From positions 192,001-256,000 of the IMG/VR virus record IMGVR_UViG_3300031088_000008: DNA of 64,000 nucleotides, one strand, 5' to 3'. The translations under genes were made by a program, and so were the position numbers. Origin of the DNA: a virus. Taxonomy: Duplodnaviria > Caudoviricetes. The notes under the pieces were generated by a model, which did no database searches, was not told the DNA's origin, and worked only from the letters and a program-made list of their open reading frames with translations. Shown piece by piece: positions 2,327-18,846 of the stretch (the stretch's first letter is position 1; each line of letters opens with the position of its first letter).

Positions 2327-2587
2327 GTGAGAAGTGTGGAAAGTCCCGTAAAGATGCTTAGCCAGGAACCGCATATCTTCCGCGTAACGCTGAGCTTTCT
2401 AGCAACCGGCGCTACCAAGATGGTTGTTGTCAGTTATGATGGCTCCATCGTGTACGTTATGGATGCCGATGATTCCTGGCTCCGGGAGTTCAAGTCCGGT
2501 GAGCACAAGATCTACGTGGACGGCCACTATGATCTGCTGGACTGCAATATCTATCTGGGCAAGCGACGGGAAGATCAGGATTGGTAG
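2327..2587 (+). CDS. Hypothetical protein
   Basis: 86 aa ORF overlapping the first array gene. Confidence 0.55.
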   Translation: MRSVESPVKMLSQEPHIFRVTLSFLATGATKMVVVSYDGSIVYVMDADDSWLREFKSGEHKIYVDGHYDLLDCNIYLGKRREDQDW

Positions 2588-2796
2588 AGCCCACCTTTGA
2601 ACAGCAATGGCCGCACCGTGTAGAACTGGCATGCTGTATTACCGACTACACGGATGCCTTTTCCTGGCTGTGGGCTCAGATCCTCAAGAACAATCTAGAG
2701 AGTCGAAAGGTCTTCACCACCTTTGGCCAGCGTAGCGTTGGCTTCAGCGACGAGCATCGACAACTGGCCATGCACTTCAAGCTACGATTTGGTTGA
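2581..2796 (+). CDS. FKLxW-family protein
   Basis: Ends AMHFKLRFG. Confidence 0.75.
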   Translation: MVEPTFEQQWPHRVELACCITDYTDAFSWLWAQILKNNLESRKVFTTFGQRSVGFSDEHRQLAMHFKLRFG

Positions 2797-2820
2797 CATA
2801 GAGTAGAGCGGTGCTAAGCC
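2791..2820 (+). promoter_or_regulatory. Host sigma70-type early promoter
   Basis: GGTTGACATAGAGTAGAGCGGTGCTAAG, same consensus as promoters at 34-60 kb. Confidence 0.65.
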
Positions 2821-2826
2821 AGTTCT

Positions 2827-3087
2827 ATGAAACAGATCGACAGCAAGTACCGCCAATTTCCCACCGCGCTGGAACTGCCTGATCTTCCCACTGATCGTCA
2901 GTTAGCCCGCAGCGAGGAAATGATTGCGTGGATCAAGGAAAGCAACCTAGTCTACCAAAAGGACTTTGTTTGCTTTGAGCACCAGACCGGCAAGCCCGGT
3001 CACAGCAAGAAGGTCACGATGGCCTGGGCCTTCCGCGATCGTGGCACCGCCCTTCACTTCAAACTAACCTTTGGTGGCTGGCGATGA
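2827..3087 (+). CDS. FKLxW-family protein
   Basis: Ends ALHFKLTFGGWR. Confidence 0.85.
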   Translation: MKQIDSKYRQFPTALELPDLPTDRQLARSEEMIAWIKESNLVYQKDFVCFEHQTGKPGHSKKVTMAWAFRDRGTALHFKLTFGGWR

Positions 3088-3584
3088 TGGTGGTCTGCAT
3101 TTCAATCCGCCAGTATTGCAGGGTTGACTACAATACACTCAAGATTCAGCTGGGCACTATGGTCAGTGGATGGATGGATGATTATCTGGTCTGGGAAGGT
3201 GTCGACCACGATTGGCCCGATGCTGATGCCGGGGAAGTTCGTCACCTTCAGACTTGGGTGGCCATTGATGACCACTGGGTAGCGTTCATTTGGAACAGCG
3301 ACGAAATCGGCACCATGTTCAAGAGTTATTTCACGGACTGGAATCCCTCGCACAAGCATCGAGTAATCATCGACGGTATCCGCTACACCGAGGGAACCCT
3401 CAACGGAACTGACATCTTCAAGTGGTTCAAGGAGCGCGACCTCGCCAACTCCGGAGACTACAGCTTTGCTCCTCACATAGATGATAGTACGACACTGGCC
3501 ACGGCCTTTGAGTTCAAGAATGCCCAGACTGCCATGTTGTTCAAGTTGACTTTCGGAGGTACTCATGTTCAAAGCCTTATCTAG
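3084..3584 (+). CDS. FKLxW-family protein, two-unit fusion
   Basis: Internal degenerate IGTMFKSYF plus terminal AMLFKLTFGG; ATGA overlap. Confidence 0.85.
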   Translation: MMVVCISIRQYCRVDYNTLKIQLGTMVSGWMDDYLVWEGVDHDWPDADAGEVRHLQTWVAIDDHWVAFIWNSDEIGTMFKSYFTDWNPSHKHRVIIDGIRYTEGTLNGTDIFKWFKERDLANSGDYSFAPHIDDSTTLATAFEFKNAQTAMLFKLTFGGTHVQSLI

Positions 3585-3897
3585 GGCCAACCGTGAGATG
3601 CAATTGGAAAGCTGGACACCCGTTACAATCACGATGGGAACCATGTTCCACTTGTTCGATCAGGAACGGGAAGACATGGCCACTCCTCTGGACGATCTAA
3701 AGTCCACGTCCGTTCTGTTGTTTCTGGAAACTTGGTGCAAGGCCCATATCAAACAGGGCTTCGCAGTCAAGAGGGAACCGGCATCACTGACCTCCTTTAC
3801 CCAAGTGGGGAAAGATGATAACACCGCATGTCTGATATTTTTGTTCAAATTGTCCAGCGAAGCCGTCCGCTTCAAGATGACGTGGGGCGGACGGTGA
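3565..3897 (+). CDS. FKLxW-family protein
   Basis: Ends AVRFKMTWGGR. Confidence 0.85.
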   Translation: MFKALSRANREMQLESWTPVTITMGTMFHLFDQEREDMATPLDDLKSTSVLLFLETWCKAHIKQGFAVKREPASLTSFTQVGKDDNTACLIFLFKLSSEAVRFKMTWGGR

Positions 3898-4139
3898 GTC
3901 ATACCTTTGTTAAATCCGATGACCACATCTGGGCATGGAACGACGAACCCTTTGTTATGCGAGCCAGCGACGAGGTGAAAAACTGGTTGTTGGCCCACGT
4001 GGGAAAGGAAATGACCTATAGCAGCAAGTGGGGCTGGAAAGGTTCCTGGCGGATACTCCGCATCGATGGCTGCGCTCACTTTGGCTTCGCGGATCCCAAG
4101 AAAGCCATGCTGTTCAAGTTGGCCTGGAGCGGCGTGTGA
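3894..4139 (+). CDS. FKLxW-family protein
   Basis: GTGA overlap start; ends AMLFKLAWSGV. Confidence 0.85.
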   Translation: MSHTFVKSDDHIWAWNDEPFVMRASDEVKNWLLAHVGKEMTYSSKWGWKGSWRILRIDGCAHFGFADPKKAMLFKLAWSGV

Positions 4140-4345
4140 GAAAGCAATTCATCTATGAGGTAAAGATCAGCTGGGCCAAGGATCCCTATGGTGACAATTC
4201 GATCGAGTGGCTGATTGAAAACAAGCTCAAGCCGGAACGTGACTGGCAGATTGACATGCACGGCGGAAAGCTGGACTATCTTAGCTTTTGGTTCCACGAC
4301 GCCAACAAAGCCCTGATCGTCAAGCTCACACTGGGTGGCATGTGA
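4136..4345 (+). CDS. FKLxW-family protein
   Basis: GTGA overlap; ends ALIVKLTLGGM. Confidence 0.8.
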   Translation: MRKQFIYEVKISWAKDPYGDNSIEWLIENKLKPERDWQIDMHGGKLDYLSFWFHDANKALIVKLTLGGM

Positions 4346-4566
4346 GTACCGAGTATCCATTCTGCAAGACGGTGGCGATCAGTACTCGTCAGGGTCGTGC
4401 CCGTTATCCTGAACTCGTAAAATGGCTTGAGGATCAAAACTGGTCCGAGGGCTTTGATTACTCCGTGGATCTCCTATACGGTGAGCCCATGGGTGATCCG
4501 GTTGCTTGGCAGTTTGCCTTTGATGATGCGCGGAAGGCTGTGGCCTTCAAGCTGGTATGGGGATGA
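4342..4566 (+). CDS. FKLxW-family protein
   Basis: GTGA overlap; ends AVAFKLVWG. Confidence 0.85.
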   Translation: MSTEYPFCKTVAISTRQGRARYPELVKWLEDQNWSEGFDYSVDLLYGEPMGDPVAWQFAFDDARKAVAFKLVWG

Positions 4567-4856
4567 AGAACGCCCAGCAGCGCCTGGCTGCTCTTCCCTA
4601 CCATATAATCGTGCCTGGGGTCTGGCATGAGGATCCCATATATGATCGTCTGATCGACGCCATCAACTGGTTGTATGATGATGGTCCGCAATCCACTGAT
4701 TGGTTTGTACACCAGTGTGAAGATGGTATCTTCATAGATAAGAAGAACAAGTACCAGATGTATCCAAGGAAAACAACTGCCTACACGTTCGCGTTCAGGA
4801 ATCGAAACGAAGCCGCGTTATTCAAATTGTTGTGGTTTTATAAATTGAAGTATTGA
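4563..4856 (+). CDS. FKLxW-family protein
   Basis: ATGA overlap; ends AALFKLLWFYKLKY. Confidence 0.85.
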   Translation: MKNAQQRLAALPYHIIVPGVWHEDPIYDRLIDAINWLYDDGPQSTDWFVHQCEDGIFIDKKNKYQMYPRKTTAYTFAFRNRNEAALFKLLWFYKLKY

Positions 4857-4890
4857 AAGTGCGCCTGCTACCTAGGAGGTAGGAGGAGCG

Positions 4891-5181
4891 ATGTTCAATT
4901 TGCCAGAAGAGTCCGATGGTGAGACCAACTATCACATCGTATATCTGAAATTGCCTGGTAGCGTCTGGTGTGAGAGTACCCAGGATCTCCGCGATGACAT
5001 TGATGCGTGGCTGGAAACCAATGATGTTGGTGACGACCAGTACAACAGCTTCTACTTCCGAGACCCAGAGAACGCACAAGAGGGTGACTGGTACCACAAT
5101 GCGGTGACCAGTAACAAATATATCTGTTACTGCTTCGCGGACCGCAACCACGCACTCCTATTCAAACTCACATTCAAGTAG
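4891..5181 (+). CDS. FKLxW-family protein (acidic)
   Basis: AGGAGG RBS; ends ALLFKLTFK. Confidence 0.85.
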   Translation: MFNLPEESDGETNYHIVYLKLPGSVWCESTQDLRDDIDAWLETNDVGDDQYNSFYFRDPENAQEGDWYHNAVTSNKYICYCFADRNHALLFKLTFK

Positions 5182-5183
5182 TC

Positions 5184-5213
5184 GCTTGACACTGGAAACC
5201 CTGGTGCTACAAA
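5184..5213 (+). promoter_or_regulatory. Host sigma70-type early promoter inside the array
   Basis: CTTGACACTGGAAACCCTGGTGCTACA. Confidence 0.65.
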
Positions 5214-5219
5214 GCTGGC

Positions 5220-5501
5220 ATGAAGCGTCTAGTTGATCCTCTCGTGGCAGAAGGCCATAAGGTATTCGTATCCTATGATAGCAGCGCCTTTGAGACTGTG
5301 AAGGTCTCCACTTCCAAGGGGTTCAGCTATACGAGGAGTCGTAGTCCAACAGCTGGATTCCAAGCGTGGCTACAGGACACTGCCGGTCCTCTTGGTATTC
5401 TCTGGACCACGACCAAGGATGAAGAGGGCAAGGGCTTGTTTATCTTTTTCTACAGGTCCAGTCACGCTATGCTATGCAAGCTCACTTGGGGAGGATCATG
5501 A
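5220..5501 (+). CDS. FKLxW-family protein
   Basis: Ends AMLCKLTWGGS. Confidence 0.85.
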   Translation: MKRLVDPLVAEGHKVFVSYDSSAFETVKVSTSKGFSYTRSRSPTAGFQAWLQDTAGPLGILWTTTKDEEGKGLFIFFYRSSHAMLCKLTWGGS

Positions 5502-5785
5502 CGCACGTCTGCATCAAGGTCAATGACGAGATTTGGGATGGCTACGGTCTCCGCCTCGTCATGCACGACTGGCTGGTGCAGAATGTAGGTCAACAGGCCA
5601 GCGACATGACGGATTATACATGGAGCCGGAAAGCTGCCTTTTATCTGAGGGCCAGCGAGAGTTCCATTGATCCCATGTATCTGGCAACCGGTGATCGCCA
5701 GAATGGTCCAGCAAAATTCCTTCACTTCAAGTTCAAAGACCCCGCGAAGGCTATGATGTTCAAACTTGCATGGGGTGGTCGATGA
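5498..5785 (+). CDS. FKLxW-family protein
   Basis: ATGA overlap; ends AMMFKLAWGGR. Confidence 0.85.
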   Translation: MTHVCIKVNDEIWDGYGLRLVMHDWLVQNVGQQASDMTDYTWSRKAAFYLRASESSIDPMYLATGDRQNGPAKFLHFKFKDPAKAMMFKLAWGGR

Positions 5786-6036
5786 CTATTCGGGATAATG
5801 TGATCATCACAACCATCTTCATACCCACGGACAGGTTTCCCTGGAAGCTAGTCAAGGACGATGATGGAGTGGAGCGAAAGCTCTATGATGTCACAGCCGA
5901 ACCTCTAGCAACTGTGGTGTCCATGAACACTGTGTGGGGATTCAACGACAGCACAGATAGCGTGATGATATCATTTCTAGAGGGTTGTGATCTGGATAAG
6001 GTCATGTTATTCAAACTGACTTGGGGAGGATTGTAG
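5782..6036 (+). CDS. FKLxW-family protein
   Basis: ATGA overlap; ends VMLFKLTWGGL. Confidence 0.85.
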   Translation: MTIRDNVIITTIFIPTDRFPWKLVKDDDGVERKLYDVTAEPLATVVSMNTVWGFNDSTDSVMISFLEGCDLDKVMLFKLTWGGL

Positions 6037-6299
6037 TGGCCGACCAGCGTGTGATGCGAAATCTCTTTTACGTCTCGATCATCAAGCGAGCGGAGCTCTT
6101 TCATCAGCTGGCCGACCAGGTCTGCGCTCGAATGGGCCCTCCGCCAGAAGGCATTGAAGCAATGCACCGTCATTTGGAAAAGAGTCACGAGGACGATCTC
6201 CGGTGGCTGGTGGACAACGACGTACAGGTCACCATGAAGATGATCGACCTTATCTCCCAGCGGACTGCGGAGATCAGGAGCAAGTTGATTGCAGACTAG
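6036..6299 (+). CDS. Hypothetical helical protein (non-family passenger in the array)
   Basis: TAGTG overlap after GGAGG; lacks the motif. Confidence 0.65.
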   Translation: MADQRVMRNLFYVSIIKRAELFHQLADQVCARMGPPPEGIEAMHRHLEKSHEDDLRWLVDNDVQVTMKMIDLISQRTAEIRSKLIAD

Positions 6300-6624
6300 C
6301 TATAAGATGGTCTGGGATCGGGGCAATCCACTCAAGGTGGTTGTCGAGGGTTGTGTTCCTGAGAACTCCTTTGTGTTGCGCGGACCTGAGACTCCCGAGG
6401 AACGGCTTGCACGAAAGGCTCAGGAAGCTGCCAACACTCATATGGAAAATCTAGCTCAGCTTTTCCGAAATCACTTTGACAGTCGGTGGCGTGCCAGTGA
6501 TCTCTATCCATGGATGGAAGAGAACGCACCCGGCTACAAAGTTGGAGTATCCAACAAGAGCGGTGCCATTTTGGTATTCCAAGAAAAGCATCACGCTATG
6601 ATGTTCAAGCTAGCCTGGTCATGA
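6289..6624 (+). CDS. FKLxW-family protein
   Basis: Ends AMMFKLAWS. Confidence 0.85.
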   Translation: MQTSYKMVWDRGNPLKVVVEGCVPENSFVLRGPETPEERLARKAQEAANTHMENLAQLFRNHFDSRWRASDLYPWMEENAPGYKVGVSNKSGAILVFQEKHHAMMFKLAWS

Positions 6625-6854
6625 GTGTCAACGTCGTCCTGCCTTTTAGTACCTGTGCTAGTTCTTCAAGCAATGGGTCGGTGAAAGTCCATCTCAACCC
6701 AGATATTTTGGATTGGCTCGCTGACAATGCGCCCCCAATCAGCCAGAAGGTAAACTGGATGTTGGGTCGCGATTACAGTCGATGGCAGGTAATGTTCAAC
6801 CTCCCCGATAAACACACCGCTGTCTTGTTCAAATTGACTTTTGGAGGCCGTTGA
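6621..6854 (+). CDS. FKLxW-family protein
   Basis: ATGA overlap; ends AVLFKLTFGGR. Confidence 0.85.
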   Translation: MSVNVVLPFSTCASSSSNGSVKVHLNPDILDWLADNAPPISQKVNWMLGRDYSRWQVMFNLPDKHTAVLFKLTFGGR

Positions 6855-6869
6855 CCCCATAATGGGTTA

Positions 6870-7307
6870 ATGCGTATCCTGGAACACTTCGACGTTAAAT
6901 TCTCTGGTCCGTTGAAAGCGACAACTCGTAGCCGCTTCACGCTCCAGAATGACGACGGTACAATCTTTGATGTCATGATCCCCGGTGAGGAAAAACTCCT
7001 CGCGGCATTTCGGTGGATGGGCGAGAATGATTGCCTTCGTCATCTGAGATCCGTCGAGCCTGAATACCATGATAATCTCAAGGATATCATGAAGATTGAG
7101 GAATACAACACCCAGGTTCGAGAACACGCTCATCTGGTTGGAAGTCTTCAAACAGGAATCAACTATAACAATTACTCGCCCCAACATTACTCCAGTAATG
7201 GATATCCAATACCGCAGCTTCAACCTGTTCCCTCTGCGGTCTATGAGTGTACGTGGACCTTCTACAGCAAGGAACACGCAGTGATGTTCAAGTTGGCGTG
7301 CGGCTGA
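6870..7307 (+). CDS. FKLxW-family protein with long insertion
   Basis: Ends AVMFKLACG. Confidence 0.8.
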   Translation: MRILEHFDVKFSGPLKATTRSRFTLQNDDGTIFDVMIPGEEKLLAAFRWMGENDCLRHLRSVEPEYHDNLKDIMKIEEYNTQVREHAHLVGSLQTGINYNNYSPQHYSSNGYPIPQLQPVPSAVYECTWTFYSKEHAVMFKLACG

Positions 7308-7672
7308 TGAAACTCATCGAGAAACATCATCAGTGGTATATTGTTCCCAGCGATGGAGAAATGTTCTTTGCCTGGGAAGCCATTGATGCTGAAGTGCCCA
7401 CGCATATTCGTGCCAATCCCCGCATCTTACCTTTTCTTGCCGAATGGATGGATAACACCTGTCCCGGTCGATGGGGAACGGCATGGATGGATAAAGGCAG
7501 GGCTATCTGGATTGAGGACCCCAGTGTCTTTCAATTGTTCAAGTTAGCCTGGCACGATCACGCCGATATCCAGATAGTAGTGATGCCGGAGATCACGGCC
7601 TTCTACTGCCCCTATATTCCACTGACGATCACGAGTGCAATTCCACAGGTGGGCGATGGCGAGGAGGCTTGA
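7307..7672 (+). CDS. FKLxW-family protein with C-terminal gp23-like peptide
   Basis: FQLFKLAWH followed by AFYCPYIPL. Confidence 0.8.
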   Translation: MKLIEKHHQWYIVPSDGEMFFAWEAIDAEVPTHIRANPRILPFLAEWMDNTCPGRWGTAWMDKGRAIWIEDPSVFQLFKLAWHDHADIQIVVMPEITAFYCPYIPLTITSAIPQVGDGEEA

Positions 7673-7904
7673 CGGCGTTCGGGTCGTGATACCCAAGAGC
7701 CGCGTCTGCATTATAGATGAACACGGCTTCGACGACAGTCTCTCGGACGAGTGCTGGGACTGGATCCAAGAAAACATTGGCGCATGGGGTGTGGACTGGG
7801 AACATGGCGAATGTTGGATGTTCGAAGATTATGGGATGACAAGTTTGGAATTTCACTTTAAGAGAGCTTCCGATGCAATGTTGTTCAAACTCACCTGGGC
7901 CTAG
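7656..7904 (+). CDS. FKLxW-family protein
   Basis: Ends AMLFKLTWA. Confidence 0.85.
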   Translation: MARRLDGVRVVIPKSRVCIIDEHGFDDSLSDECWDWIQENIGAWGVDWEHGECWMFEDYGMTSLEFHFKRASDAMLFKLTWA

Positions 7905-8157
7905 CTATTGGGATTTTCCGCTTCCCAATAAAAAGCTCTATCGGGATCTCAGTTGGCGGGCTGAGGATGATGCCAGTCGTTTATTCGATCAGGAAATGAA
8001 GGACTGGCTAGACCAGCACAACTTCTCCTACAATGGCAGGTTTGTTCATGCCTCCACGGATCTCAGCCAGTATGGCGAACAAGTCTATTCCTGGAGGCTT
8101 ATGATTCGACTCTATGATTCCAAAGCTGCCGTGCTATACAAGCTGACATGGATCTAG
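7873..8157 (+). CDS. FKLxW-family protein (start uncertain)
   Basis: Ends AVLYKLTWI. Confidence 0.75.
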   Translation: MQCCSNSPGPSYWDFPLPNKKLYRDLSWRAEDDASRLFDQEMKDWLDQHNFSYNGRFVHASTDLSQYGEQVYSWRLMIRLYDSKAAVLYKLTWI

Positions 8158-8438
8158 AAGCTACCATTCACACCATTGAGGTGCCAGTCAACGCCGAGTG
8201 CATTGATCGCGCTGGCCGATGGCTCGCAGAGCGTCTGGGTGAGCCCGGATGGAAAAGCAAGCCCCGCACCAACGAACATGGCGATGTGGCCTTTGATGCG
8301 TCTCGTATCTATATGGAAGACGTGCTTTGGGACGCATACGTCAACCCCAGCAGCTTTCGCGCTTTCTTTTTGATCAAAGAAAACGACAACCTTGCCATGT
8401 TGTTCAAGCTGACCTTTGGAGGACAGAATGCTGATTGA
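8148..8438 (+). CDS. FKLxW-family protein
   Basis: Ends AMLFKLTFGGQNAD. Confidence 0.85.
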   Translation: MDLEATIHTIEVPVNAECIDRAGRWLAERLGEPGWKSKPRTNEHGDVAFDASRIYMEDVLWDAYVNPSSFRAFFLIKENDNLAMLFKLTFGGQNAD

Positions 8439-8853
8439 GGAAGTCAAGTGGCGCAAATGGCTGGGACTTCCCTACATCAGTGTTCAGGGGGAATGGCTGG
8501 AAGAGTTCTATCAGCGAAAGCTCAATCAGGGAGATGTCTCGAGCGCACGATGGACTGGTGGCTTCGAGGAATACCGCTGGGCAAAACCCATAAGGGATTG
8601 GCTCCAGGAAAGTGGCGGACGTTACAAGCTAGAAAAGTGTGGGCAAGCCAGCGACTTCGCGGTTGGAAGGCAAGCTAAGATCTGGTTTCGTGATATGAAG
8701 AATGTCACGATGTTCAAGCTGGCTTGGGGTGGGGCAAAGAAGCCTGAGGATCCGCCAGTTGTGTTTGGTGTTACGAGAACTCTCGTCAAGGCCAAGAGTA
8801 GAAAGCTGAAGGGCACTTGGTCCCTTCAGCCTCCTGAAAAATCTACGAAGTAA
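8428..8853 (+). CDS. FKLxW-family protein with C-terminal gp23-like peptide
   Basis: VTMFKLAWGG followed by VTRTLVKAKSRKLKGTWSL. Confidence 0.8.
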   Translation: MLIEEVKWRKWLGLPYISVQGEWLEEFYQRKLNQGDVSSARWTGGFEEYRWAKPIRDWLQESGGRYKLEKCGQASDFAVGRQAKIWFRDMKNVTMFKLAWGGAKKPEDPPVVFGVTRTLVKAKSRKLKGTWSLQPPEKSTK

Positions 8854-9294: not shown

Positions 9295-9320
9295 GATCGA
9301 TCTCCTTTTGGGGTACAGAA

Positions 9321-12255: not shown

Positions 12256-12275
12256 ACCTGTACCGTAAAGCCAGG

Positions 12276-12494
12276 TTAGGCAAAAGTCAACTTGAACAAC
12301 ACGGCTGCCTGTGGATCGTCGAAGTGAAAGAGAATGGTATCCAGGCCAAAGGAAACGTCCCATCCATTATAGACCCTATTGGGATCCTTGCTCGCAAGGC
12401 AGAGCTCGGGAAAGTGGGCTATCAACCATTCAGCAGATTCCCTGTAGGTGCTCTGCCAATTTCCTCGATCAGAGATTTCCACCGTTACAGCCAT
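12276..12494 (-). CDS. FKLxW-family protein
   Basis: AVLFKLTFA. Confidence 0.85.
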   Translation of the reverse strand: MAVTVEISDRGNWQSTYRESAEWLIAHFPELCLASKDPNRVYNGWDVSFGLDTILFHFDDPQAAVLFKLTFA

Positions 12495-12721
12495 GAGAGT
12501 TTGAACAGCATGGCTGCCTCTCGGTCCTCGGTCTTAAAGCAGAAGTGACGCAGGAATGGAAATGGTGCGATACCCGAGGTGTCCACATTGGAACTCCAAA
12601 TGACATCAAGCGCCCGGTCGTCAAACCATTCGGCTATCTCAATCCAGTGATCATCGCTCTGATCCATTGGCATGCTGACGATTACGGGATGAGTTTGCAT
12701 GACCAGTGACATCAAGGGCAT
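12485..12721 (-). CDS. FKLxW-family protein
   Basis: AMLFKLSWL. Confidence 0.85.
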   Translation of the reverse strand: MPLMSLVMQTHPVIVSMPMDQSDDHWIEIAEWFDDRALDVIWSSNVDTSGIAPFPFLRHFCFKTEDREAAMLFKLSWL

Positions 12722-12954
12722 TATGCCCACCTCAATTTGAACATCATGGCATTTTGGGGCTCACGGAACTCAAACATGATCCCCACAAATTCCACATTGT
12801 TGTGGACGCCTGGCTTGCTCACCACGGTGCTAATAGGTCGTTCCTTGACATGTTCCACGGCCCATTCTACCAGATAGGTCTGAACAGCTTTTACCTTGTT
12901 GATCTCTTCATTGATCTCGCGAAGGCGCGCCAGAGATAGTTCAACTTCCCTCAT
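12721..12954 (-). CDS. FKLxW-family protein
   Basis: AMMFKLRWA. Confidence 0.85.
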   Translation of the reverse strand: MREVELSLARLREINEEINKVKAVQTYLVEWAVEHVKERPISTVVSKPGVHNNVEFVGIMFEFREPQNAMMFKLRWA

Positions 12955-13265
12955 GCCCACCTCAACTTGAATAGGACTGCTCTCGAGGGATCACGGAACA
13001 CAAAGAAGGCGTTATCGGTCCGTGTGGCGATCACCCAGCCCCAGTCCTCATGACCCACGCATTGTTCTCCCGAAGAGACGCAACCCGGTCCATCGTTCTC
13101 GCAGTGGTCAAGATGAAAGACCAATTCCACAATGTTGGTCCACCAACGGCTATCACCCAGGCCAACGTTTGCCCGGAGCCAGTCTAGGACTTCCGGCTTT
13201 AGGGTGATACCCATTTCCCAGTTGACCAGTCGCTCATAGGGCAGCTCAACAGTCGCGCTAGTCAT
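12951..13265 (-). CDS. FKLxW-family protein
   Basis: AVLFKLRWA. Confidence 0.85.
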   Translation of the reverse strand: MTSATVELPYERLVNWEMGITLKPEVLDWLRANVGLGDSRWWTNIVELVFHLDHCENDGPGCVSSGEQCVGHEDWGWVIATRTDNAFFVFRDPSRAVLFKLRWA

Positions 13266-13546
13266 CGACCACCAAATGTAAGTTTGAATAGAACAATGGT
13301 ATCAAGGTCCACTTCGTCACCAAAGTAAAAATGTAGATCCTTGCTTCCAAACTGCGCCAGCCATCCAGGAGTGAAGTCCCAGTTCTTGCCTCTGATATCC
13401 CCACCGTTGCCGTTGCTGGGTCCCAGACGCTCTCCCGCCCACATGACTGCATCGGCAATCTTCTCACCACTGGGATCGTGGAGTGTCACGACAGTAACCT
13501 TTGGGAGGTCTATATCGCTGGGAACCCAAAAGACTTGCTGCTTCAT
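13262..13546 (-). CDS. FKLxW-family protein
   Basis: IVLFKLTFGGR. Confidence 0.85.
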   Translation of the reverse strand: MKQQVFWVPSDIDLPKVTVVTLHDPSGEKIADAVMWAGERLGPSNGNGGDIRGKNWDFTPGWLAQFGSKDLHFYFGDEVDLDTIVLFKLTFGGR

Positions 13547-13842
13547 TGTCCACCCCAGCGAAGCTTGAACAACATGGCGTGTTTGGCATCCGCATCATTG
13601 AAGCAGATCATCCGGTGATTCCAGATGCCACCACTTCCCTCTCGACGCCTCTGGTCGTAATTGTAGCTCTTCACGCACCAATGCCCGGGAGGCAATTCCT
13701 TCAACGTGGATCCGCTGGGAATGTACTGGAGGTTCATCTCCTTGGCCCAGGTCTTTATCGCATCAAGGACCGCCACCCAGGGGTTTGAGGTGTCTTCAGA
13801 CAGGTTGTAGATCTGTTTGTCAGTGAGAGGAAAGGTGATCAT
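13543..13842 (-). CDS. FKLxW-family protein
   Basis: AMLFKLRWGGQ; GGAGG RBS. Confidence 0.85.
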   Translation of the reverse strand: MITFPLTDKQIYNLSEDTSNPWVAVLDAIKTWAKEMNLQYIPSGSTLKELPPGHWCVKSYNYDQRRREGSGGIWNHRMICFNDADAKHAMLFKLRWGGQ

Positions 13843-13862
13843 TAATCCTCCCTATAGAGTAT

Positions 13863-14123
13863 CTAGCCCCAAGTCAATTTGAACAGCATGGCAAAATCAG
13901 GATCGTTCTGAAAGTAAAAGACCCACTCATCACTGGTGCGACCAGAAGTCCAACCCCAGCCAACTCTGTCCTCACTATACAGTCGATCGTGCCCGCTCAG
14001 TCCCTTCTTTTCCACACACCAGGAAAGTGCATCATTCAAACTGGCTGTTGGAACGCGGACAAACGTGCAGGAATTGTACCACTCCATGCTCTTGCTCAGC
14101 GTGTCTCCCCAAAGGTCGCTCAC
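13863..14123 (-). CDS. FKLxW-family protein
   Basis: AMLFKLTWG. Confidence 0.85.
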   Translation of the reverse strand: MSDLWGDTLSKSMEWYNSCTFVRVPTASLNDALSWCVEKKGLSGHDRLYSEDRVGWGWTSGRTSDEWVFYFQNDPDFAMLFKLTWG

Positions 14124-14350
14124 TTTCCACCCCACGTTAGTTTGAACAACATGGCATCCCTGGCAAACTCATCAGGAAATACCACCGACCAGTCCTGCTC
14201 ACTGAGGCTGGCATTGGATCGAAAAGGAATTCCTCGACTATCCATAAAGTCAAGCACTTCGGGGCGAACTTTCCAATACCCACCCCGTCGATTTCTTGCC
14301 TCCAACCACTCGCAGGCTTTTGAAAGATCACAGTGAACACGAATACCCAT
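14120..14350 (-). CDS. FKLxW-family protein
   Basis: AMLFKLTWGGK. Confidence 0.85.
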   Translation of the reverse strand: MGIRVHCDLSKACEWLEARNRRGGYWKVRPEVLDFMDSRGIPFRSNASLSEQDWSVVFPDEFARDAMLFKLTWGGK

Positions 14351-14718
14351 CAGGGAATACTCAGCTTGAACAAGAGCGCATCGCTCTTCAATTCAAAGGC
14401 AATCTCACGGATGCTGCGGAACTTGTCGCGTATCTCATCAGTTACCATATTCAGTTTGCGGGCCAACCGCAACTCTTCCTGGTCATCACGGGTAACGGTT
14501 ATCTGTTCAATGGTGGTGAACCGACGATTGTTCACGTAGTACCAGCGACCCTTGCAGTTTGCCTCCAACCACTCAAATACATGGTCGGCAATGGGGACGC
14601 CATAGGTTGCCGGTCGACCATCAGGTCGCCAGCGATGGACCGGAGAAGTCTCCGAGTTGAAACCCTTACGGGAAAAGTACCGGACGCCATAGAGGGGCAC
14701 GAATGTCCACTCAATCAT
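14350..14718 (-). CDS. FKLxW-family protein
   Basis: ALLFKLSIP. Confidence 0.8.
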   Translation of the reverse strand: MIEWTFVPLYGVRYFSRKGFNSETSPVHRWRPDGRPATYGVPIADHVFEWLEANCKGRWYYVNNRRFTTIEQITVTRDDQEELRLARKLNMVTDEIRDKFRSIREIAFELKSDALLFKLSIP

Positions 14719-14948
14719 ATCCAGGTCAACTTGAACAAAAGTGCCACATCCTTGTCCTCTATGGTCACGATACAGTTCTGTGTGTCAAAGTCAATGTCGT
14801 GGTCCCACTTGTTGGGAGCCAGTCGGGCATCTAGCCAGTCGGCTATCTCGGGGTTGAATATCTGATAACTTCCCCAGGGGCTTTCCGTACAGTGGTGTTC
14901 CCTGTAGGCAACCTTATCACTGAGTATGATGCTGTACTCTACGCCCAT
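14715..14948 (-). CDS. FKLxW-family protein
   Basis: ALLFKLTWI. Confidence 0.85.
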   Translation of the reverse strand: MGVEYSIILSDKVAYREHHCTESPWGSYQIFNPEIADWLDARLAPNKWDHDIDFDTQNCIVTIEDKDVALLFKLTWI

Positions 14949-15193
14949 GTGAGTTTGAACAACATGGCAGCTTTGGGATCCTGGAAGGATATGGCATTGT
15001 TGGTGGGTTGCCCATCAACAAAGGCGTAGACCCATATCCACTCACACTCCCCGGACCAACCACCAGCTTGATTTCCTCGTCCCACAAAGGTGGTCAACCA
15101 CTGAAAAACATCCTGGCGAATCCACCATCCACTACTGTAGGGGTGAGTGTCCCTATATAGGATGCTGCTGGGAATGGGGACCACACTATCCAT
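14939..15193 (-). CDS. FKLxW-family protein
   Basis: AMLFKLTWA. Confidence 0.85.
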   Translation of the reverse strand: MDSVVPIPSSILYRDTHPYSSGWWIRQDVFQWLTTFVGRGNQAGGWSGECEWIWVYAFVDGQPTNNAISFQDPKAAMLFKLTWA

Positions 15194-15549
15194 TAGCCCC
15201 AAGCCAGCTTGAACATCATCACGTCTTTACGACGCCGGAAAAGGATCCCACACTCCTCACCAAACTCACTGGGATGCTCGGTGGTCCAGTCCATGTAGTT
15301 CAAGCTATCGTGGAGCCAGTTACGGATATCTGGACGAAGGTAATCGTAGTTGGGATGAAAATCGTAGTTGTGGTTGTGGTCTTCACTCTCGAGGGTAAAG
15401 AGCTCATTGTCATAGCCAAAAGCCGAGTTGCTCTGCCGACCGCGAACCAGCGAGGGAGCATCCACCTTGGGCTTTCCAATGGCGGTCACGCGATAGCGAT
15501 AGTTCCAGGGCCACCAGGGGATACCAATGTCATGAATCTGTATTTTCAT
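15193..15549 (-). CDS. FKLxW-family protein
   Basis: VMMFKLAWG. Confidence 0.85.
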   Translation of the reverse strand: MKIQIHDIGIPWWPWNYRYRVTAIGKPKVDAPSLVRGRQSNSAFGYDNELFTLESEDHNHNYDFHPNYDYLRPDIRNWLHDSLNYMDWTTEHPSEFGEECGILFRRRKDVMMFKLAWG

Positions 15550-15790
15550 CAGCCCTGCTTTCTACGAGAAGAAAAATCAGTTGGGCGGTCCGGCGGTCCT
15601 GAAATGCCAGGTCGTGACGGTAGGAGGGGTTCATAGCCATCCACCAATCACGTCGCCACTCAAGACCCAGTTCCTCAAACCACAGGTCGATCTCCCAATC
15701 GAGATCGCCATTCATATTGGCCCACGTACTTGGCATGATGCTGCTGGGAATGCTTACCAGCCAGGAAGTTTGAGGACGCCGTCTAGCCAT
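15530..15790 (-). CDS. FKLxW-family protein (degenerate motif)
   Basis: AFQDRRTAQLIFLL. Confidence 0.7.
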   Translation of the reverse strand: MARRRPQTSWLVSIPSSIMPSTWANMNGDLDWEIDLWFEELGLEWRRDWWMAMNPSYRHDLAFQDRRTAQLIFLLVESRADENTDS

Positions 15791-15811
15791 CTTCCTCTCT
15801 ATAGAGCAGAA

Positions 15812-16093
15812 CTATAACCAAGTCAACTTGAACAAGAGGGCATCAGAGGCTTCCCGGAAACCAAAGGAAACTCCAATGACTTCTCGGTGAGGCTCCCAAA
15901 CACTGGAGTTTCTATGAAGCAACTCAATGGTAGCGTGGCTACGGGTAAAAGAAGTAAGCCACTCGCATAGCTCATCAGTTGGAACTATCTGGTATCCCCG
16001 GGGCTTTCCCCACTCCAATCCCCGGGGAAGAGAAGTGTGTCGGCGATTGTAATTTCCAAGTGCTCCTGGGAGCATGATCGAGAGTTCATACAT
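15812..16093 (-). CDS. FKLxW-family protein
   Basis: ALLFKLTWL. Confidence 0.85.
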   Translation of the reverse strand: MYELSIMLPGALGNYNRRHTSLPRGLEWGKPRGYQIVPTDELCEWLTSFTRSHATIELLHRNSSVWEPHREVIGVSFGFREASDALLFKLTWL

Positions 16094-16114
16094 AAGCCCA
16101 CTATAGGAGTGGAC

Positions 16115-16459
16115 TTATCCCCACGTCAATTTAAAGAGCACTGCATCGCTCGGGTTAGGAATGTAAACTCCACACTTCGCAGCATAGGTTGCTAGACCCC
16201 AATCTTCATCAGATTCAGGAACCTTGTATATTGAACATAGTTCATAGGCTATGTTGTTAGCAATGAGCCAATTCTTTTCTCGACAAGTTTCGGTGCTATC
16301 CCACCAGAATAGAAATCCAAACTCTATAGAGCCTGCAGGATCCCCTACAAACATGGGTCTGAACTCAAAACTGTCACCGGTGATGTCAAGTAGCTCACGA
16401 TGACTATGCTTGATCGGAAAAATCTGATTGGGGTTCCACCCCGGATGAGGCCGCTTCAA
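16115..16459 (-). CDS. FKLxW-family protein
   Basis: AVLFKLTWG. Confidence 0.85.
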   Translation of the reverse strand: MKRPHPGWNPNQIFPIKHSHRELLDITGDSFEFRPMFVGDPAGSIEFGFLFWWDSTETCREKNWLIANNIAYELCSIYKVPESDEDWGLATYAAKCGVYIPNPSDAVLFKLTWG

Positions 16460-16935
16460 AACAGCGGCCTCATGGACCAGAGGAAGTCGATGGCATTGGA
16501 GATTGTCGAGACCGCGGTAATCTCATCAGAGTGACCTGCGAAACTCAAGTCCATACGGACCACTTTGTTTTTGGAATAAACTGATGCAGTCGATGCACCA
16601 ATCGCTTGTCGTATGGAGGAAGCCTTTGCGCTGGCAATCTGTGGATCTTCATAGAAGCGGTACAGACACACGCGAATAACACTGTTACTTGGGTCACCCT
16701 GAAAAGCGAGCGTGGGCTGTCCTAGCTGAGAAAGGATGGTCTCCCTACCAAGATCACCAGTGGTCTTGCGACACGCTCGAATCCGGTCGTAACCTTTGGC
16801 TTTATCTTGATCTGCCATTTTGTAGCTCTGACCGTTCAGCGTGATAAAGTCTCCCAAGGTCCCTGAGGAGATTCGCTGAAGCAGCGCAATGCTGGCATAT
16901 TCAGTGCATGAATTGATTAGGATTGATTTTGACAT
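16456..16935 (-). CDS. Hypothetical protein (non-family passenger with own promoter)
   Basis: 159 aa ORF; TTGACA-N17-TCTATA upstream at about 17038-17010. Confidence 0.65.
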   Translation of the reverse strand: MSKSILINSCTEYASIALLQRISSGTLGDFITLNGQSYKMADQDKAKGYDRIRACRKTTGDLGRETILSQLGQPTLAFQGDPSNSVIRVCLYRFYEDPQIASAKASSIRQAIGASTASVYSKNKVVRMDLSFAGHSDEITAVSTISNAIDFLWSMRPLF

Positions 16936-17056
16936 GGTGCGGTTCCCTATAAGAGAGGTTAGAGTTGAGTTAGAGTTTCCAACGCCGCACCATTGCGATC
17001 ATCTACCTCCTATAGAACACCGTTAACTCAGTATGTCAATTACGTTTTCTAATTGA

Positions 17057-17323
17057 CTAGCCCCACGTCAATTTAAAGAGCGTGGCAATCGCAGGGTCCT
17101 TGAAGGCGAAGACTACCTGACCAGGAACGACATCATTGCCATCGTCGTAGTCCTGAATGATATCCCACTCATCGACCTCAACGCGCTGCTGGTCTATCCA
17201 CTCCCAAAAGCCATCGGTTGCCCTATAGCCCTCATTGTAGTCGCTGGCCAGATTCCACCACACGACACCGGGTCCCGATGGATCGTAGTGGTCCTCTTTT
17301 ACTATGATGTGAACGTTGTGCAT
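17057..17323 (-). CDS. FKLxW-family protein (acidic)
   Basis: ATLFKLTWG. Confidence 0.85.
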   Translation of the reverse strand: MHNVHIIVKEDHYDPSGPGVVWWNLASDYNEGYRATDGFWEWIDQQRVEVDEWDIIQDYDDGNDVVPGQVVFAFKDPAIATLFKLTWG

Positions 17324-17562
17324 CAGTGGTTCCAAATCAGCTTGAACAACATGGCAGTTCTCCGATCTTCAAAGGTGAACTCATAGGATTCAACACCAAG
17401 GACGAGGTCCTTGGAGAACCCACCAGTCCACTGACCATAGGGATTCTGCTCGCTCAGGACCCGCCCAACGGTCGCCTCAAGCCAGTCCCAAATACCATTC
17501 CTCTCCCCATGGTATGACTCAAAGGGAATCAGTACACGGTATCTAAACTTTTTACGCCGCAT
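17323..17562 (-). CDS. FKLxW-family protein
   Basis: AMLFKLIWNH. Confidence 0.85.
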   Translation of the reverse strand: MRRKKFRYRVLIPFESYHGERNGIWDWLEATVGRVLSEQNPYGQWTGGFSKDLVLGVESYEFTFEDRRTAMLFKLIWNH

Positions 17563-17845
17563 CAATGACTCCATACCAAGTGAGCTTGAACAACATAGCG
17601 GCACGCTGATCGGGAATATCCACGTGACTGTCGCCGCTGATTAGGTCAATGTCCATTCCATAGAAGACATCTCGATCCTCAAGCCACTGATGCATGGTAT
17701 CCTGCAGAACATAGATGGTGCAGAGGTCATCCCACAATCGAACATAGGGGCGTCCACGATGGATACCACAACCCATGTCCAGTTCATAATAGTGGGGGTC
17801 GGACCTGATCTCAAAGAAGTCCGCGGACACAGCTATCTCACTCAC
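17552..17845 (-). CDS. FKLxW-family protein
   Basis: AMLFKLTWYG. Confidence 0.85.
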   Translation of the reverse strand: MSEIAVSADFFEIRSDPHYYELDMGCGIHRGRPYVRLWDDLCTIYVLQDTMHQWLEDRDVFYGMDIDLISGDSHVDIPDQRAAMLFKLTWYGVIDAA

Positions 17846-18093
17846 TGGAAATCATGCCACGTGAGCTTGAACAACATAGCGATGCCCTTGTCTTTGAAGC
17901 GAAAGCGAACGCTATTCAATCCCTCTACGGGGCGTTGACTTACCCAAGCATCCCAACCCAGGCCCTCACCAATCACTGGGAAACCCTCCTCCACTATAGG
18001 GACACCATTGGCTGCAAACCACCCCTTTAGAGCAGGTGCGAAGAGGCCCTTCTCAAGAGGAACGCTGGCCGCGAAGGTGTCACTATAGGTCAT
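17842..18093 (-). CDS. FKLxW-family protein
   Basis: AMLFKLTWHDFQ. Confidence 0.85.
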   Translation of the reverse strand: MTYSDTFAASVPLEKGLFAPALKGWFAANGVPIVEEGFPVIGEGLGWDAWVSQRPVEGLNSVRFRFKDKGIAMLFKLTWHDFQ

Positions 18094-18116
18094 CTTTTCT
18101 CTCTATAGAGGAAGAG

Positions 18117-18335
18117 TTAGCCCCAAGTCAACTTGTACAGCATGGCCTTCTGGGGGTCGCGAATACTGACTATCAAGCGGTCATCCAGTTCCTCAGGACG
18201 AACGTTTACGCGCCAAAACCACTCACCAGTAGTGTCCAGCTTGGATAGCGATTGAGCGCCCACATGCTCCAGTAGCCAGTTCTGCACCTCGATGTGAAGT
18301 TCCATCCCTATAGGGAAGTTGTGCCACTCTGTCAT
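18117..18335 (-). CDS. FKLxW-family protein
   Basis: AMLYKLTWG. Confidence 0.85.
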   Translation of the reverse strand: MTEWHNFPIGMELHIEVQNWLLEHVGAQSLSKLDTTGEWFWRVNVRPEELDDRLIVSIRDPQKAMLYKLTWG

Positions 18336-18344
18336 GTTTCCGCT

Positions 18345-18566
18345 CTATAGGGGAAAGGTACACCACGTCAAGTGAAACAGCTGAGCAATCCTCCGCTTCT
18401 CAAAGACAAGGGAATCCACCCCTATCCTGTTGAAATCAAAGTCAAACCACCAGTGAACACCCTCGTGAAAACGGTTTCTGATAAACCATTCCTCTATGTC
18501 GGGAAGCAACTCACTACTATAGGTGCCGATTACCATGTAGGCCTGAACAGGGATGCGGACTTCCAT
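18345..18566 (-). CDS. FKLxW-family protein
   Basis: AQLFHLTWC. Confidence 0.8.
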   Translation of the reverse strand: MEVRIPVQAYMVIGTYSSELLPDIEEWFIRNRFHEGVHWWFDFDFNRIGVDSLVFEKRRIAQLFHLTWCTFPL

Positions 18567-18588
18567 GTTTCTCTCTATAGAGGAAGAG

Positions 18589-18846
18589 TTAACCCCAAGT
18601 CAACTTGAACAAAAGAGCAGTGGATTGCTCCTGGAATTCGACCTCTAGGCCCTCCGGATAGAAGCTATAGTGGGCATCAAAGAACGTACTATAGGAGAAA
18701 GAACCACCATGCTCCTGTAACCACCGAGTCATACGTGGCCCCGGACCAAATCCCGTCACATAGCTTCCACTAGAAGGGTTGTGAACGGTCTGATAACACA
18801 GATCCTTACTGTCCTCACGATACTCTATAAAGACACTGGTAGTCAT
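18589..18846 (-). CDS. FKLxW-family protein (first gene of minus arm)
   Basis: ALLFKLTWG. Confidence 0.85.
   Translation of the reverse strand: MTTSVFIEYREDSKDLCYQTVHNPSSGSYVTGFGPGPRMTRWLQEHGGSFSYSTFFDAHYSFYPEGLEVEFQEQSTALLFKLTWG

Follow-up and report, generated by a model that had tools for sequence, protein, structure and literature searches.

Gene content of the locus and size of the family

The array spans positions 2581-18864 of the window, the whole 64,000-nucleotide stretch that was analysed, and is flanked on both sides by tail-fibre genes. It comprises 53 members (22 on the plus strand and 31 on the minus strand), of which 52 are supported by hidden Markov models (HMMs) and one, at 15530-15790(-), is a degenerate candidate scoring only 8 bits; the earlier note had arrived at about 53 genes with the same strand distribution, in exact agreement. 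The seed HMM, built from 44 seeds and applied genome-wide at E<0.01, placed 51 members within 2533-18942 (21 plus, 30 minus), and a second HMM from alignment A2 (146 sequences) gained one more at 9531-9821(+). Of the 40 stop-to-stop frames that a strict regular expression for the tail matched in the window, 39 fall within 2979-18942. Gene models are 53 to 166 amino acids long (median, 88). The plus arm is broken by a non-member open reading frame (ORF) and by an endolysin gene on the minus strand, and the minus arm converges with it near 9.8 kb (Table 1). Terminator-like sites, one of which lies at this convergence, showed no overall enrichment (17 versus 15.7 ± 4.4 in shuffles). About 37 of the genome's 52 copies of CTATAG fall within 13852-20485 of the window.

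The array resides in a soil or plant-associated megaphage genome (416.7 kb, IMG/VR) that is collinear with a 462-kb relative, and among cultured phages its closest relative is Sinorhizobium phage Phosso, whose major capsid protein (MCP) is 86% identical. Genome-wide, the seed HMM matched 99 of 5,605 frames and none of the 5,605 reversed frames, the A2 HMM gave 103 matches (union of both, 106), and the strict tail expression was found in 84 of 5,605 frames versus 6 to 12 in five shuffled genomes. Roughly 100 highly divergent copies of one small domain make up about 6% of the genome. The complete relatives G001 and G002 hold 81 and 89 family matches (91 copies in G002 with our own HMM), Phosso holds 52, and Atu_ph07 only 3, all marginal; in metagenomes, 1,989 clusters at 50% identity match the family at E≤1e-3.

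Table 1. Features of the array and its surroundings (window coordinates)
Feature	Position	Strand	Evidence or remark
Plus arm	2581..9821	+	22 family genes; HMM matches, gene models, junctions
Minus arm	9804..18864	-	30 family genes and the degenerate candidate; HMM matches
Non-member ORF	6021-6299	+	Inside array span
Peptidase_M15_3 endolysin, non-member	8854..9435	-	Pfam 8.3e-17; phrog_894 1.6e-34
159-aa non-family gene	16456..16935	-	No family or HMM match; within 942-bp strain-variable module
Terminator-like hairpin, convergence of arms	9786..9798	+	Pattern scan only
ORF-poor stretch	18865..20140	.	Upstream of minus arm; dense (C)ACTATAG / CTCTATAGAG copies
21-bp exact repeat, copy 1 (tail codons LFKLTWG)	16119..16139	-	Longest common substring
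21-bp exact repeat, copy 2	17061..17081	-	942 bp from copy 1
Compact 72-aa member	18117..18335	-	Structure-model query; AlphaFold2 on A2
Member with MCP-like extension after FKLAW	7307..7672 (also 7247-7672)	+	Like MCP 353-367, AFYCPYIPLT
Member with 35-aa extension after FKLAWGG	8428..8853 (also 8416-8853)	+	Capsid likeness at chance
Promoter-like GTTGAC-N18-CTATAG-N8-ATG	18564..18603	-	TTGAC is Leu-Thr codons of upstream gene's tail
Promoter-like CTTGAC-N16-CTATAG-N9-ATG	18333..18371	-	Sequence pattern
Promoter-like GTTGAC-N18-CTATAG-N9-ATG	18091..18131	-	Sequence pattern
Promoter-like ATTGAC-N18-CTATAG-N7-ATG	16091..16129	-	Sequence pattern
Promoter-like TTGACT-N17-(C)TATAG-N8-ATG	15788..15826	-	Precedes degenerate candidate
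Promoter-like ATTGAC-N15-CTATAG-N9-ATG	13840..13877	-	Sequence pattern
TTGACA-N19-(C)TATAG module	17010..17039	-	Upstream of region with non-family gene
Earlier-proposed site GTTGAC-N16-CTAAGC-N7-ATG	2792..2829	+	Read from sequence
Earlier-proposed site CTTGAC-N16-CTACAA-N7-ATG	5185..5222	+	Read from sequence

Conservation and predicted fold

A constant tail behind a variable body and a mid-protein xxWL helix had been described by eye, and the alignment bears out both: the tail F, K, and L are at least 90% conserved and every one of 46 members has the W of the WL motif, while the bodies are barely alignable (14 to 37% identical to the first sequence, with column identity averaging 14%). In two members (7307..7672 and 8428..8853), the tail motif is not terminal but runs on into an extension. 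AlphaFold2 modeled the compact 18117..18335 member as a beta-alpha-beta-beta-alpha domain (pLDDT, 90.8; pTM, 0.79) with elements β1 (residues 5-10), α1 (11-24), β2 (39-43), β3 (53-58), and α2 (61-71). The conserved columns map onto these regular secondary-structure elements, namely, V/I-x-V/I-P in β1; L13, V17, W20, and L21 in α1; W39 and W41 in β2; F56 and F58 in β3; and A-M-L-F-K-L-T-W in α2. In the model, the constant tail is the last helix, α2, in which eight consecutive residues (A64-W71) are 51 to 99% conserved (K68, 98%; T70, 84%), and the diversity is located in the N-terminus and in two loops (27-38 and 42-53) that vary in sequence and length. Each array gene would encode such a domain of 60 to 70 residues, which fits the option raised in the earlier note that the tail completes a small alpha/beta fold with a diversified surface.

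The same note knew of no characterised function for the family, and database searches agree with it: Pfam, PHROGs, and NCBIfam gave no shared match (0 of 46 members), a PDB profile search found nothing below E 0.7, and Foldseek with the model returned no match at E≤0.001. The family is an undescribed phage protein family. The best VIA Z score of the model was 6.3. Imm6 was matched by one member only, at E 0.05.

Gene junctions and putative promoters

Neighboring genes overlap by 1 to 11 nt at 29 of 49 junctions, and 15 of 30 starts that overlap or lie close to the preceding gene have at least four of the five GGAGG positions matched upstream, versus 263 of 2,000 random 13-mers. The codons for the tail overlap Shine-Dalgarno-like sequences or a putative TTGAC -35 box for the gene that follows. 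Overlapping stop and start codons would link the genes, with Shine-Dalgarno-like sequences often lying in the tail codons.

The module TTGACn-N15-19-TATAG occurs 12 times genome-wide (0 to 7 across 20 shuffles), including seven copies on the minus strand at 13.8-18.6 kb, six of which precede an array gene start. In the excerpted text of PMC2873474, the Sinorhizobium meliloti sigma70 consensus is CTTGAC-N17-CTATAT; the array modules, (C/G/A)TTGAC-N15-18-CTATAG, resemble it but end the -10 element with G, not T. Rhizobial sigma70-like promoters may be scattered through the array, 7 to 9 nt before the ATG, a spacing past the putative -10 element that would imply nearly leaderless mRNAs. Alternatively, CTCTATAGAG, a perfect palindrome, could be an operator instead of a -10 element. 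Promoter activity, promoter use, and expression timing are predictions from these sequence patterns. The array stretch occurred in none of the RNA runs. Two host-type promoters had been proposed at 2791 and 5184; they resemble the S. meliloti consensus, but a generic sigma70 scan recovered neither and its 19 sites show no enrichment (18.6 ± 3.9 in shuffles). Where a gap of 9 to 40 nt follows, 9 of 14 tails write the Leu-Thr pair as TTGAC; where the junction overlaps, 1 of 30 does (Fisher p = 2.5e-5). In the megaphage, the Leu-Thr codons TTG-ACN in the tail of the gene before would often form the -35 box. This codon association was not replicated in G002 (2/8 versus 5/33, p = 0.6).

Divergence and strain-level variation

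Reciprocal best matches in G002 were found for 55 of 99 members at a median identity of 38%, versus 62% for 138 long ORFs compared between the two genomes. They include 14 of 21 plus-arm members (12 in the syntenic array) and 11 of 30 minus-arm members, and syntenic orthologs are 22 to 59% identical. The closest within-genome paralog has a median identity of 33%, and no recent duplicates were found. Within the genome no paralog pair exceeds 33% over at least 70 residues; the paralogs therefore diverged long ago, and the sequence diversity is old and does not stem from ongoing hypermutation.

The array content, for which the earlier note had suggested a comparison among related phages, is not fixed and differs both from G002 and among contigs of close strains, where cassette differences are concentrated in the minus arm at 15.8-18.9 kb. 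In contigs from other studies, a 942-bp module is missing exactly between the two 21-bp repeats; runs X6 and X4 place the joint of this deletion (16116/16118 to 17059/17061) on the repeat. The contigs from other studies also have one or three genes deleted at CTCTATAGAG modules, and gene bodies replaced with the tails kept, and the strain joints have a common boundary at 18876. The tail-codon repeats are recombination sites, and the breakpoints of missing cassettes sit there. Short conserved DNA in tail codons and promoter modules would be the recombination substrate for the gain, loss, and exchange of cassettes among close strains.

Fusions with major capsid protein segments

Two members carry at their C-terminus a conserved copy of a major-capsid segment. 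One, at genome positions 162400-162897, is 57.5% identical over 40 aa to residues 81-120 of the megaphage's own MCP (E 1.6e-13) and matches Pfam Gp23 at 45 bits, and the fusion is intact as an ORF in G001, G002, and G003. Its extension aligns with T4 gp23 residues ∼93-131, a stretch in which 12 residues are invariant among T4 gp23, the megaphage MCP, and the three fused orthologs. We take Gol to lie at about residues 94-122 of T4 gp23, that is, in the stretch aligned to this extension. According to the excerpted text of PMC3014915, Gol is the most conserved gp23 region and is sensed by the Lit protease together with EF-Tu, with a wider EF-Tu-binding stretch in the first quarter of gp23. Unlike Gol in T4, the megaphage fragment is free-standing, fused behind another domain and not part of the capsid protein.

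The second fusion, 7307..7672, lies in the array; its extension matches the megaphage's own MCP (blastp-short, 34.6 bits; E 8e-7), and the syntenic G002 ortholog retains the capsid segment in a pair only 34% identical overall. The extension of 8428..8853 was rejected as a capsid fragment (19.3 bits against gp23, where shuffles reach 24.4; Pfam Gp23, E 0.27), and self-BLAST found no other capsid snippets at E<0.01. A few members may act as carriers of peptides copied from the megaphage's own MCP. Phosso has a Gol-like fragment on a non-family protein, so the link between domain and capsid fragment is loose.

Candidate functions

The proteins are most plausibly a binder repertoire aimed at host factors. 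Their genes would be transcribed by the host RNA polymerase, and the diversified small binders would act against factors of the host or of competitors, in host takeover or anti-defence. The members' charges are mixed (median pI, 5.45; pI >8 in 12 of 51; median net charge, -3) and give no uniform clue to function. Taken as a whole, the proposal of a two-armed convergent array of 52 to 53 coupled and recombining genes, encoding a diversified binder repertoire with a few capsid-peptide carriers, is a tentative one.

It is unlikely that the conserved last helix instead docks all members on one partner, the other option of the earlier note, or on each other, with the variable parts as alternative specificity subunits. 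The conservation of A64-W71, polar K68 and T70 included, exceeds the need of one buried helix face, and translational coupling is what one typically sees in subunits that are produced together; but two members accommodate long extensions immediately behind the helix, and Shine-Dalgarno, -35, and recombination roles may explain part of the conservation of the tail DNA. T4-type phages package small internal proteins against defence, and the members could likewise enter the very large capsid, whether as internal proteins, ejected proteins, or assembly factors, with the capsid fragments on some of them reflecting capsid targeting or co-assembly. The two conserved MCP segments and the position between tail-fibre genes agree with this reading, which we consider rather unlikely given that the supported segments occur on only 2 of ∼100 members, that no T4-type late promoter word TATAAATA was recognised at the array, that the sigma70-like modules suggest host-polymerase transcription, and that the Gol-like fragment of Phosso is on a different protein.

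Selfish cassettes, which would persist mainly because recombination at their conserved ends duplicates and exchanges them while the phage gains little, would account for indels exactly at repeats and for gene content that differs among near-identical strains. We regard them as improbable, since the reading frames are unbroken, the core residues stay conserved over ∼2,000 clusters, syntenic orthologs are retained at 22 to 59% identity where the long ORFs are 62% identical, and recent duplicates are missing. Least expected, and in our judgment quite improbable, are small nucleic acid- or ligand-binding regulators of phage or host gene expression. The top structural neighbors of the model are the Pol II N-terminal domain and ACT, KH, and PII-like domains (Z, 4.5 to 6.3), and the last helix has a conserved lysine. 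The element order and packing resemble ACT/KH/PII-like two-layer alpha/beta sandwiches over 53 to 66 residues (rmsd, 2.1 to 4.1 Å), but the array domain lacks the fourth strand, sequence identity is 3 to 19%, and these Z scores are in the range that the tool calls a common arrangement, so the likeness does not establish homology. Moreover, we noted neither a KH GXXG loop nor an ACT ligand motif among the aligned sequences, the net charge is mostly negative, and there would be no precedent for a single phage with ∼100 paralogous regulators.

For the binder repertoire, analogies are offered by the diversified small proteins of polymorphic-toxin immunity arrays and by effector families that vary at the surface around a conserved core, such as the oomycete WY-domain effectors. 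Neither showed a relation to the array family in sequence or fold, and the resemblance, by analogy only, would lie in tandem paralogs, a conserved hydrophobic core, variable surfaces, and strain turnover. The excerpted text of PMC7824862, which does not mention the array family, describes a zinc ribbon in ∼35 copies in Bacillus phage G as a lineage-specific expansion in a jumbo phage, likewise one small domain multiplied in a very large phage genome. Compared with the zinc ribbon as described there, the array family has a beta-alpha-beta-beta-alpha fold without zinc ligands, three times the copies, and an arrangement in coupled cassettes with dual-use tail codons.

Size and layout of the family

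The small proteins with a constant FKLxW C-terminal tail form a real family, far beyond what chance would produce. Genome-wide, a strict regular expression for the tail matched 84 of 5,605 frames, against 6 to 12 in shuffled genomes, and a seed HMM recovered 99 frames, with 0/5,605 among reversed frames; a second, broader HMM brought the union of family frames to 106. The array (window 2581-18864) holds 52 supported members and one degenerate frame (15530-15790), and the HMM matches, with the degenerate frame included, bear out the 22 plus-strand and 31 minus-strand genes that the earlier note had counted by hand. The plus and minus arms converge near 9.8 kb; terminator-like sites showed no overall enrichment in the array region. 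Family proteins are rich in tryptophan, at 4.8% against 1.4% for long frames, and their charges are mixed. The genome has more clusters beyond this array, one of them with 13 genes at 403.8-408.4 kb, and this one domain, which lies outside every curated library, takes up about 6% of the 417-kb genome, with a comparable share in the relatives.

Outside the window, a 537-aa frame at genome 381432-383045 (minus strand) matches the profile of alignment A2 (146 family sequences) and carries no Pfam domain. Its residues 343-534 align with the family member 36326-36952, and the frame is an extended family form whose N-terminal part is of no recognised kind.

Features in and around the array (window coordinates unless stated otherwise)
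Feature	Position	Strand	Remarks
Collagen-like GDK-repeat fibre	176-1558	-	phrog_14098, 1.9e-24; array flank, tail-fibre-like
Non-member in array span	6021-6299		no family match
M15 endolysin, non-member	8854-9435		opposite strand to surrounding arm
GC-rich hairpin, then T-run	9786-9798	+	at arm convergence
Non-family gene in array span	16456-16935		
Modelled member, element order	18117-18335		residues: b1 5-10, a1 11-24, b2 39-43, b3 53-58, a2 61-71
ORF-poor 1.3-kb stretch	18865-20140		dense in (C)ACTATAG / CTCTATAGAG copies
Fibre- or baseplate-connector-like proteins	20141-28304	-	phrog_38418 and others; other array flank, tail-fibre-like

The source genome is a 416,714-bp IMG/VR virus record with an estimated completeness of about 90%. 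Its gp23-type major capsid protein (MCP) is 86% identical to the MCP of the 469-kb Sinorhizobium phage Phosso and 69% identical to the one in Agrobacterium phage Atu_ph07. G002, a relative with a complete 462-kb genome bearing terminal repeats, runs collinear to the source genome; median identity is 62% over 138 long ORFs, and the MCPs are 93% identical. Near-identical DNA is present in phyllosphere and plant metagenomes of several studies, the runs listed as containing it included no RNA run, and a megablast search of window 1-20000 against INPHARED returned no match. From about 36 kb onward (window ~36000-64000), G+C stands at about 55-56%, up from about 50%, AT skew is positive, and this part may be a different genome module.

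Database identity of the family

The family is new to the curated libraries, none of which holds this domain. When 46 members were scanned singly against Pfam-A, PHROGs v4, and NCBIfam, no two members hit the same family (best E values of 0.0092, 0.031, and 0.063, respectively), eight longer members had no Pfam match at E<=0.01, and the profile of alignment A1 found a sole match, at E 0.7, among 177,635 distinct PDB sequences. These results agree with the earlier note, whose author knew of no characterised function. A profile search of 1.84 billion representatives identified 1,989 clusters at E<=1e-3, nearly all of 60-115 aa with the domain at the C-terminal end. Public metagenomes contain roughly 2,000 sequence clusters of the family, and its recognition would take many "unique hypothetical" ORFs out of megaphage annotations. 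Four long proteins among the top HMM matches (P0001, P0002, P0043, and P0089; 1,349-2,701 aa) are bacterial Ig-repeat surface proteins and were treated as false positives because only the loop part of the profile matched.

Other searches returned only viral or weak neighbours. A near-length word-index search gave at least 11 matches, tblastn with one member found Phosso alone, at E 0.3, and BFVD yielded weak rows only (best E 0.03), all uncharacterised phage proteins, including ones of BcepSauron and Atu_ph07. Neighbours in the Protein Atlas were all viral "hypothetical protein" clusters with scores of 0.89-0.90. Phage T4 had no match to the A2 profile, and none of 8,000 candidates was a longer fused form of the family at E<=0.001, which is weak evidence by the tool's own account. 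A search of the available literature found no description of the family; queries with tail motif strings returned only unrelated papers.

Predicted fold

The family is confidently modelled as a small two-layer alpha/beta fold. AlphaFold2 with alignment A2 predicted the member at 18117-18335 with a pLDDT of 90.8 and a pTM of 0.79, and replaced a first model of the member at 10633-10917, built on 46 paralogs, that reached a pLDDT of only 70 and found nothing at E<=0.001 in fold searches. The conserved columns sit in the elements of the fold: V7, I9, and P10; L13, V17, W20 (99%), and L21; W39 (95%) and W41; F56, F58, and D60; and, in a2, A64-M-L-F67-K68-L69-T70-W71. Loops 27-38 and 42-53 and the N terminus vary in both sequence and length. 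Because the conserved columns map to these elements, what had been described as a constant tail corresponds in the model to the helix that closes a compact domain, and a1 is the "WL helix", which favours the suggestion of a shared small alpha/beta fold with a diversified surface.

Foldseek found nothing at E<=0.001 with the A2-based model. In a structural comparison, nine of 48,161 chains reached Z>=5, with a best Z of 6.3; the neighbours were ACT, KH, and PII-like (ferredoxin-like) folds and the Pol II N-domain, and values under 8 may reflect a common arrangement only. The family's conservation table shows no conserved motif of the kind of the KH GXXG loop, and the model has one helix only before b2.

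Gene junctions and promoter-like modules

Successive members are packed tightly, and 29 of the 49 junctions overlap by 1-11 nt. Matches to at least four of the five GGAGG positions lie upstream of 15 of 30 overlapping or closely spaced starts, compared with 13% of random 13-mers, and often fall within the W-G-G codons of the preceding tail. Junctions with a gap of 9-40 nt instead show a module of (C/G/A)TTGAC, 15-18 nt, CTATAG, 7-9 nt, and ATG, whose TTGAC is in most cases formed by the Leu-Thr codons in the tail of the gene before it. TTG-AC occurs in 9 of 14 tails before a spaced junction versus 1 of 30 before an overlapping one (p = 2.5e-5); the association was not significant in G002. The module resembles the Sinorhizobium meliloti sigma70 promoter consensus CTTGAC-N17-CTATAT (PMC2873474). 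Such rhizobial sigma70-like boxes occur in this genome above chance frequency: TTGACn-N15-19-TATAG was found 12 times genome-wide, against 0-7 in 20 shuffles, and seven copies lie in a 5-kb part of the minus arm. Two host-type promoters proposed previously, at 2791 and 5184, share the geometry of the module but have weaker -10 boxes. A generic sigma70 scan showed no enrichment, which counts against a promoter role.

The modules may act as promoters, with near-leaderless starts and early expression of the array, as the sequence suggests. The T4-type late promoter word TATAAATA occurs eight times genome-wide and never in the 20-kb bins of the array, although this word is that of T4 and may not be that of this phage. 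A search of the genome for a T7-like RNA polymerase (PF00940) gave no match, but with a control that was silent too it is uninformative. CTATAG is under-represented overall (52 copies versus about 100 expected), and about 37 of these copies lie within window 13852-20485; the syntenic array of G002 is similarly enriched (19 of 102 copies at 30-40 kb). The CTCTATAGAG palindrome could be an operator, and the ORF-poor stretch next to the minus arm could hold a bank of promoters or operators, or serve as an origin.

Turnover between strains

Cassettes of the array turn over between strains. Contigs of four runs from four studies were compared with the array at >=80% likeness, using in each run only the parts covered by contigs. 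The contigs cover the array mostly at 90-99% identity, yet their structure differs. A 942-bp module, consisting of one member body and the non-family gene at 16456-16935, is missing in two runs, and the deletion joint falls exactly between identical 21-bp copies of tail codons (16119-16139 and 17061-17081). One run joins 18115 to 18876 and another 18587 to 18876, with the loss of three genes or one gene, and the breakpoints of these joints lie at CTCTATAGAG modules. Gene bodies were also swapped for unrelated sequence of like length at 3118-3330 (three runs), 14969-15187 (three runs), and 4369-4492 (one run); at 14969-15187, the tail is kept because the swapped stretch lies upstream of the tail codons. 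One assembled contig per run stands behind each joint, and several of the joints were seen in more than one study. With an assembler word length that we take to be 31, the 21-bp repeat is too short for a collapse artefact to be likely. An unusual trait of the gene architecture is that one short sequence serves as a structural helix, as a putative ribosome-binding site or -35 box, and as a recombination site at which cassettes pass from strain to strain.

Capsid fragments fused to family members

A comparison of all member frames against the proteins of the phage itself revealed two conserved fusions to capsid fragments. At genome 162400-162897 (outside the window), a 40-residue stretch after the FKLVW helix is 57.5% identical to residues 81-120 of the phage's own MCP (E 1.6e-13), and Pfam Gp23 scores 45.2 bits, above the cut-off. 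In alignment A3, this fragment aligns to T4 gp23 ~93-131, where twelve residues are invariant, and it is the only one to align with the conserved N-terminal gp23 block, the Gol-equivalent region. We take T4 Gol to span residues ~94-122. Intact orthologs of the fusion occur in the related genomes G001, G002, and G003 at 39-46% identity. The second fusion is the member at window 7307-7672, whose C-terminal AFYCPYIPLT matches MCP 353-367 (34.6 bits) and whose ortholog in G002 keeps the MCP-like segment. Likeness of a third capsid-like extension (8416-8853) was at chance level. A self-BLAST that set 99 member frames against 603 long frames gave no snippets of terminase-, PolB-, or RNR-like or other core proteins at E<0.01, though very short motifs could escape such a comparison.

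In Phosso, a 226-aa ORF (locus L079 1396-2076; PV764938.1, about 182175-182855) is headed by a Gol-like MCP block with 48% identity to the fused fragment; the remainder is unrelated sequence, and the ORF is not a family member. What has been conserved here seems to be the fragment and not the protein that carries it, and free-standing capsid fragments may be a clade-wide feature. Cleavage by the Lit protease requires binding of Gol to EF-Tu, and a wider EF-Tu-binding stretch lies in the first quarter of gp23, according to PMC3014915. The conserved free-standing copies of the Gol-equivalent region suggest that pieces of immune-visible phage proteins may be put to use by the phages themselves; confirmation would make this a new counter-defence principle.

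Possible functions

Our leading reading, held tentatively, is that the array would be transcribed by the host polymerase, probably early, and would encode diversified binders of host or competitor factors. We consider it rather unlikely that the members instead share a docking partner or assemble into hetero-oligomers, and packaging as virion proteins is a weaker candidate. There is also a slim chance that the fold is a display scaffold, in which an early, bulk library of small stable proteins would present decoy epitopes of immune-visible phage proteins. Loops or appended peptides would then imitate conserved epitopes of the phage's own core proteins, a likeness seen for two capsid segments, one of which aligns to the Gol region, and perhaps of host proteins; host immune sensors for such epitopes would be occupied or misled by the copies; and recombination at the dual-use tail and promoter DNA would reshuffle the library from strain to strain.

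Still less probable is a set of selfish cassettes. That the members are nucleic-acid or ligand-binding regulators appears the least probable of these alternatives.

Evolution and distribution

The paralogs are old: the median identity between a member and its best paralog in this genome is 33%, and no pair exceeds 33% over >=70 residues. Array positions are conserved while sequences diverge fast. The array at 194.5-211 kb of this genome corresponds to 23-37 kb of G002, and the cluster at 403.8-408.4 kb to 233-237 kb. Of the 99 members, 55 have a reciprocal best hit in G002, with a median identity of 38%. Within this array, 14 of the 21 plus-arm members have one, mostly in collinear order, as do 11 of the 30 minus-arm members, and the content of the array is conserved only in part, not fixed among relatives. 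Similar arrays, for which the earlier note had proposed an HMM search of phage genomes, were located in G002, and there were 52 matches in Phosso and three marginal ones in Atu_ph07. On these counts, the expansion is specific to the Phosso-like clade, and since Phosso is cultured, with Sinorhizobium meliloti as its host, the function is directly testable.

Another phage, AP-J-162, is a candidate further carrier; the available passages of its paper (PMC11242549) make no mention of paralogs or gene families. Single family members also occur outside the Phosso-like clade, including on a Novosphingobium contig. The neighbourhoods in this contig (locus L067) and in provirus L021 contain phage-like genes only and give no functional clue. 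On the Novosphingobium guangzhouense contig, two family members (L067 2034-3307) lie beside a collagen-repeat protein and a DEAD/ResIII helicase, and the locus is probably a prophage or a phage-derived island.
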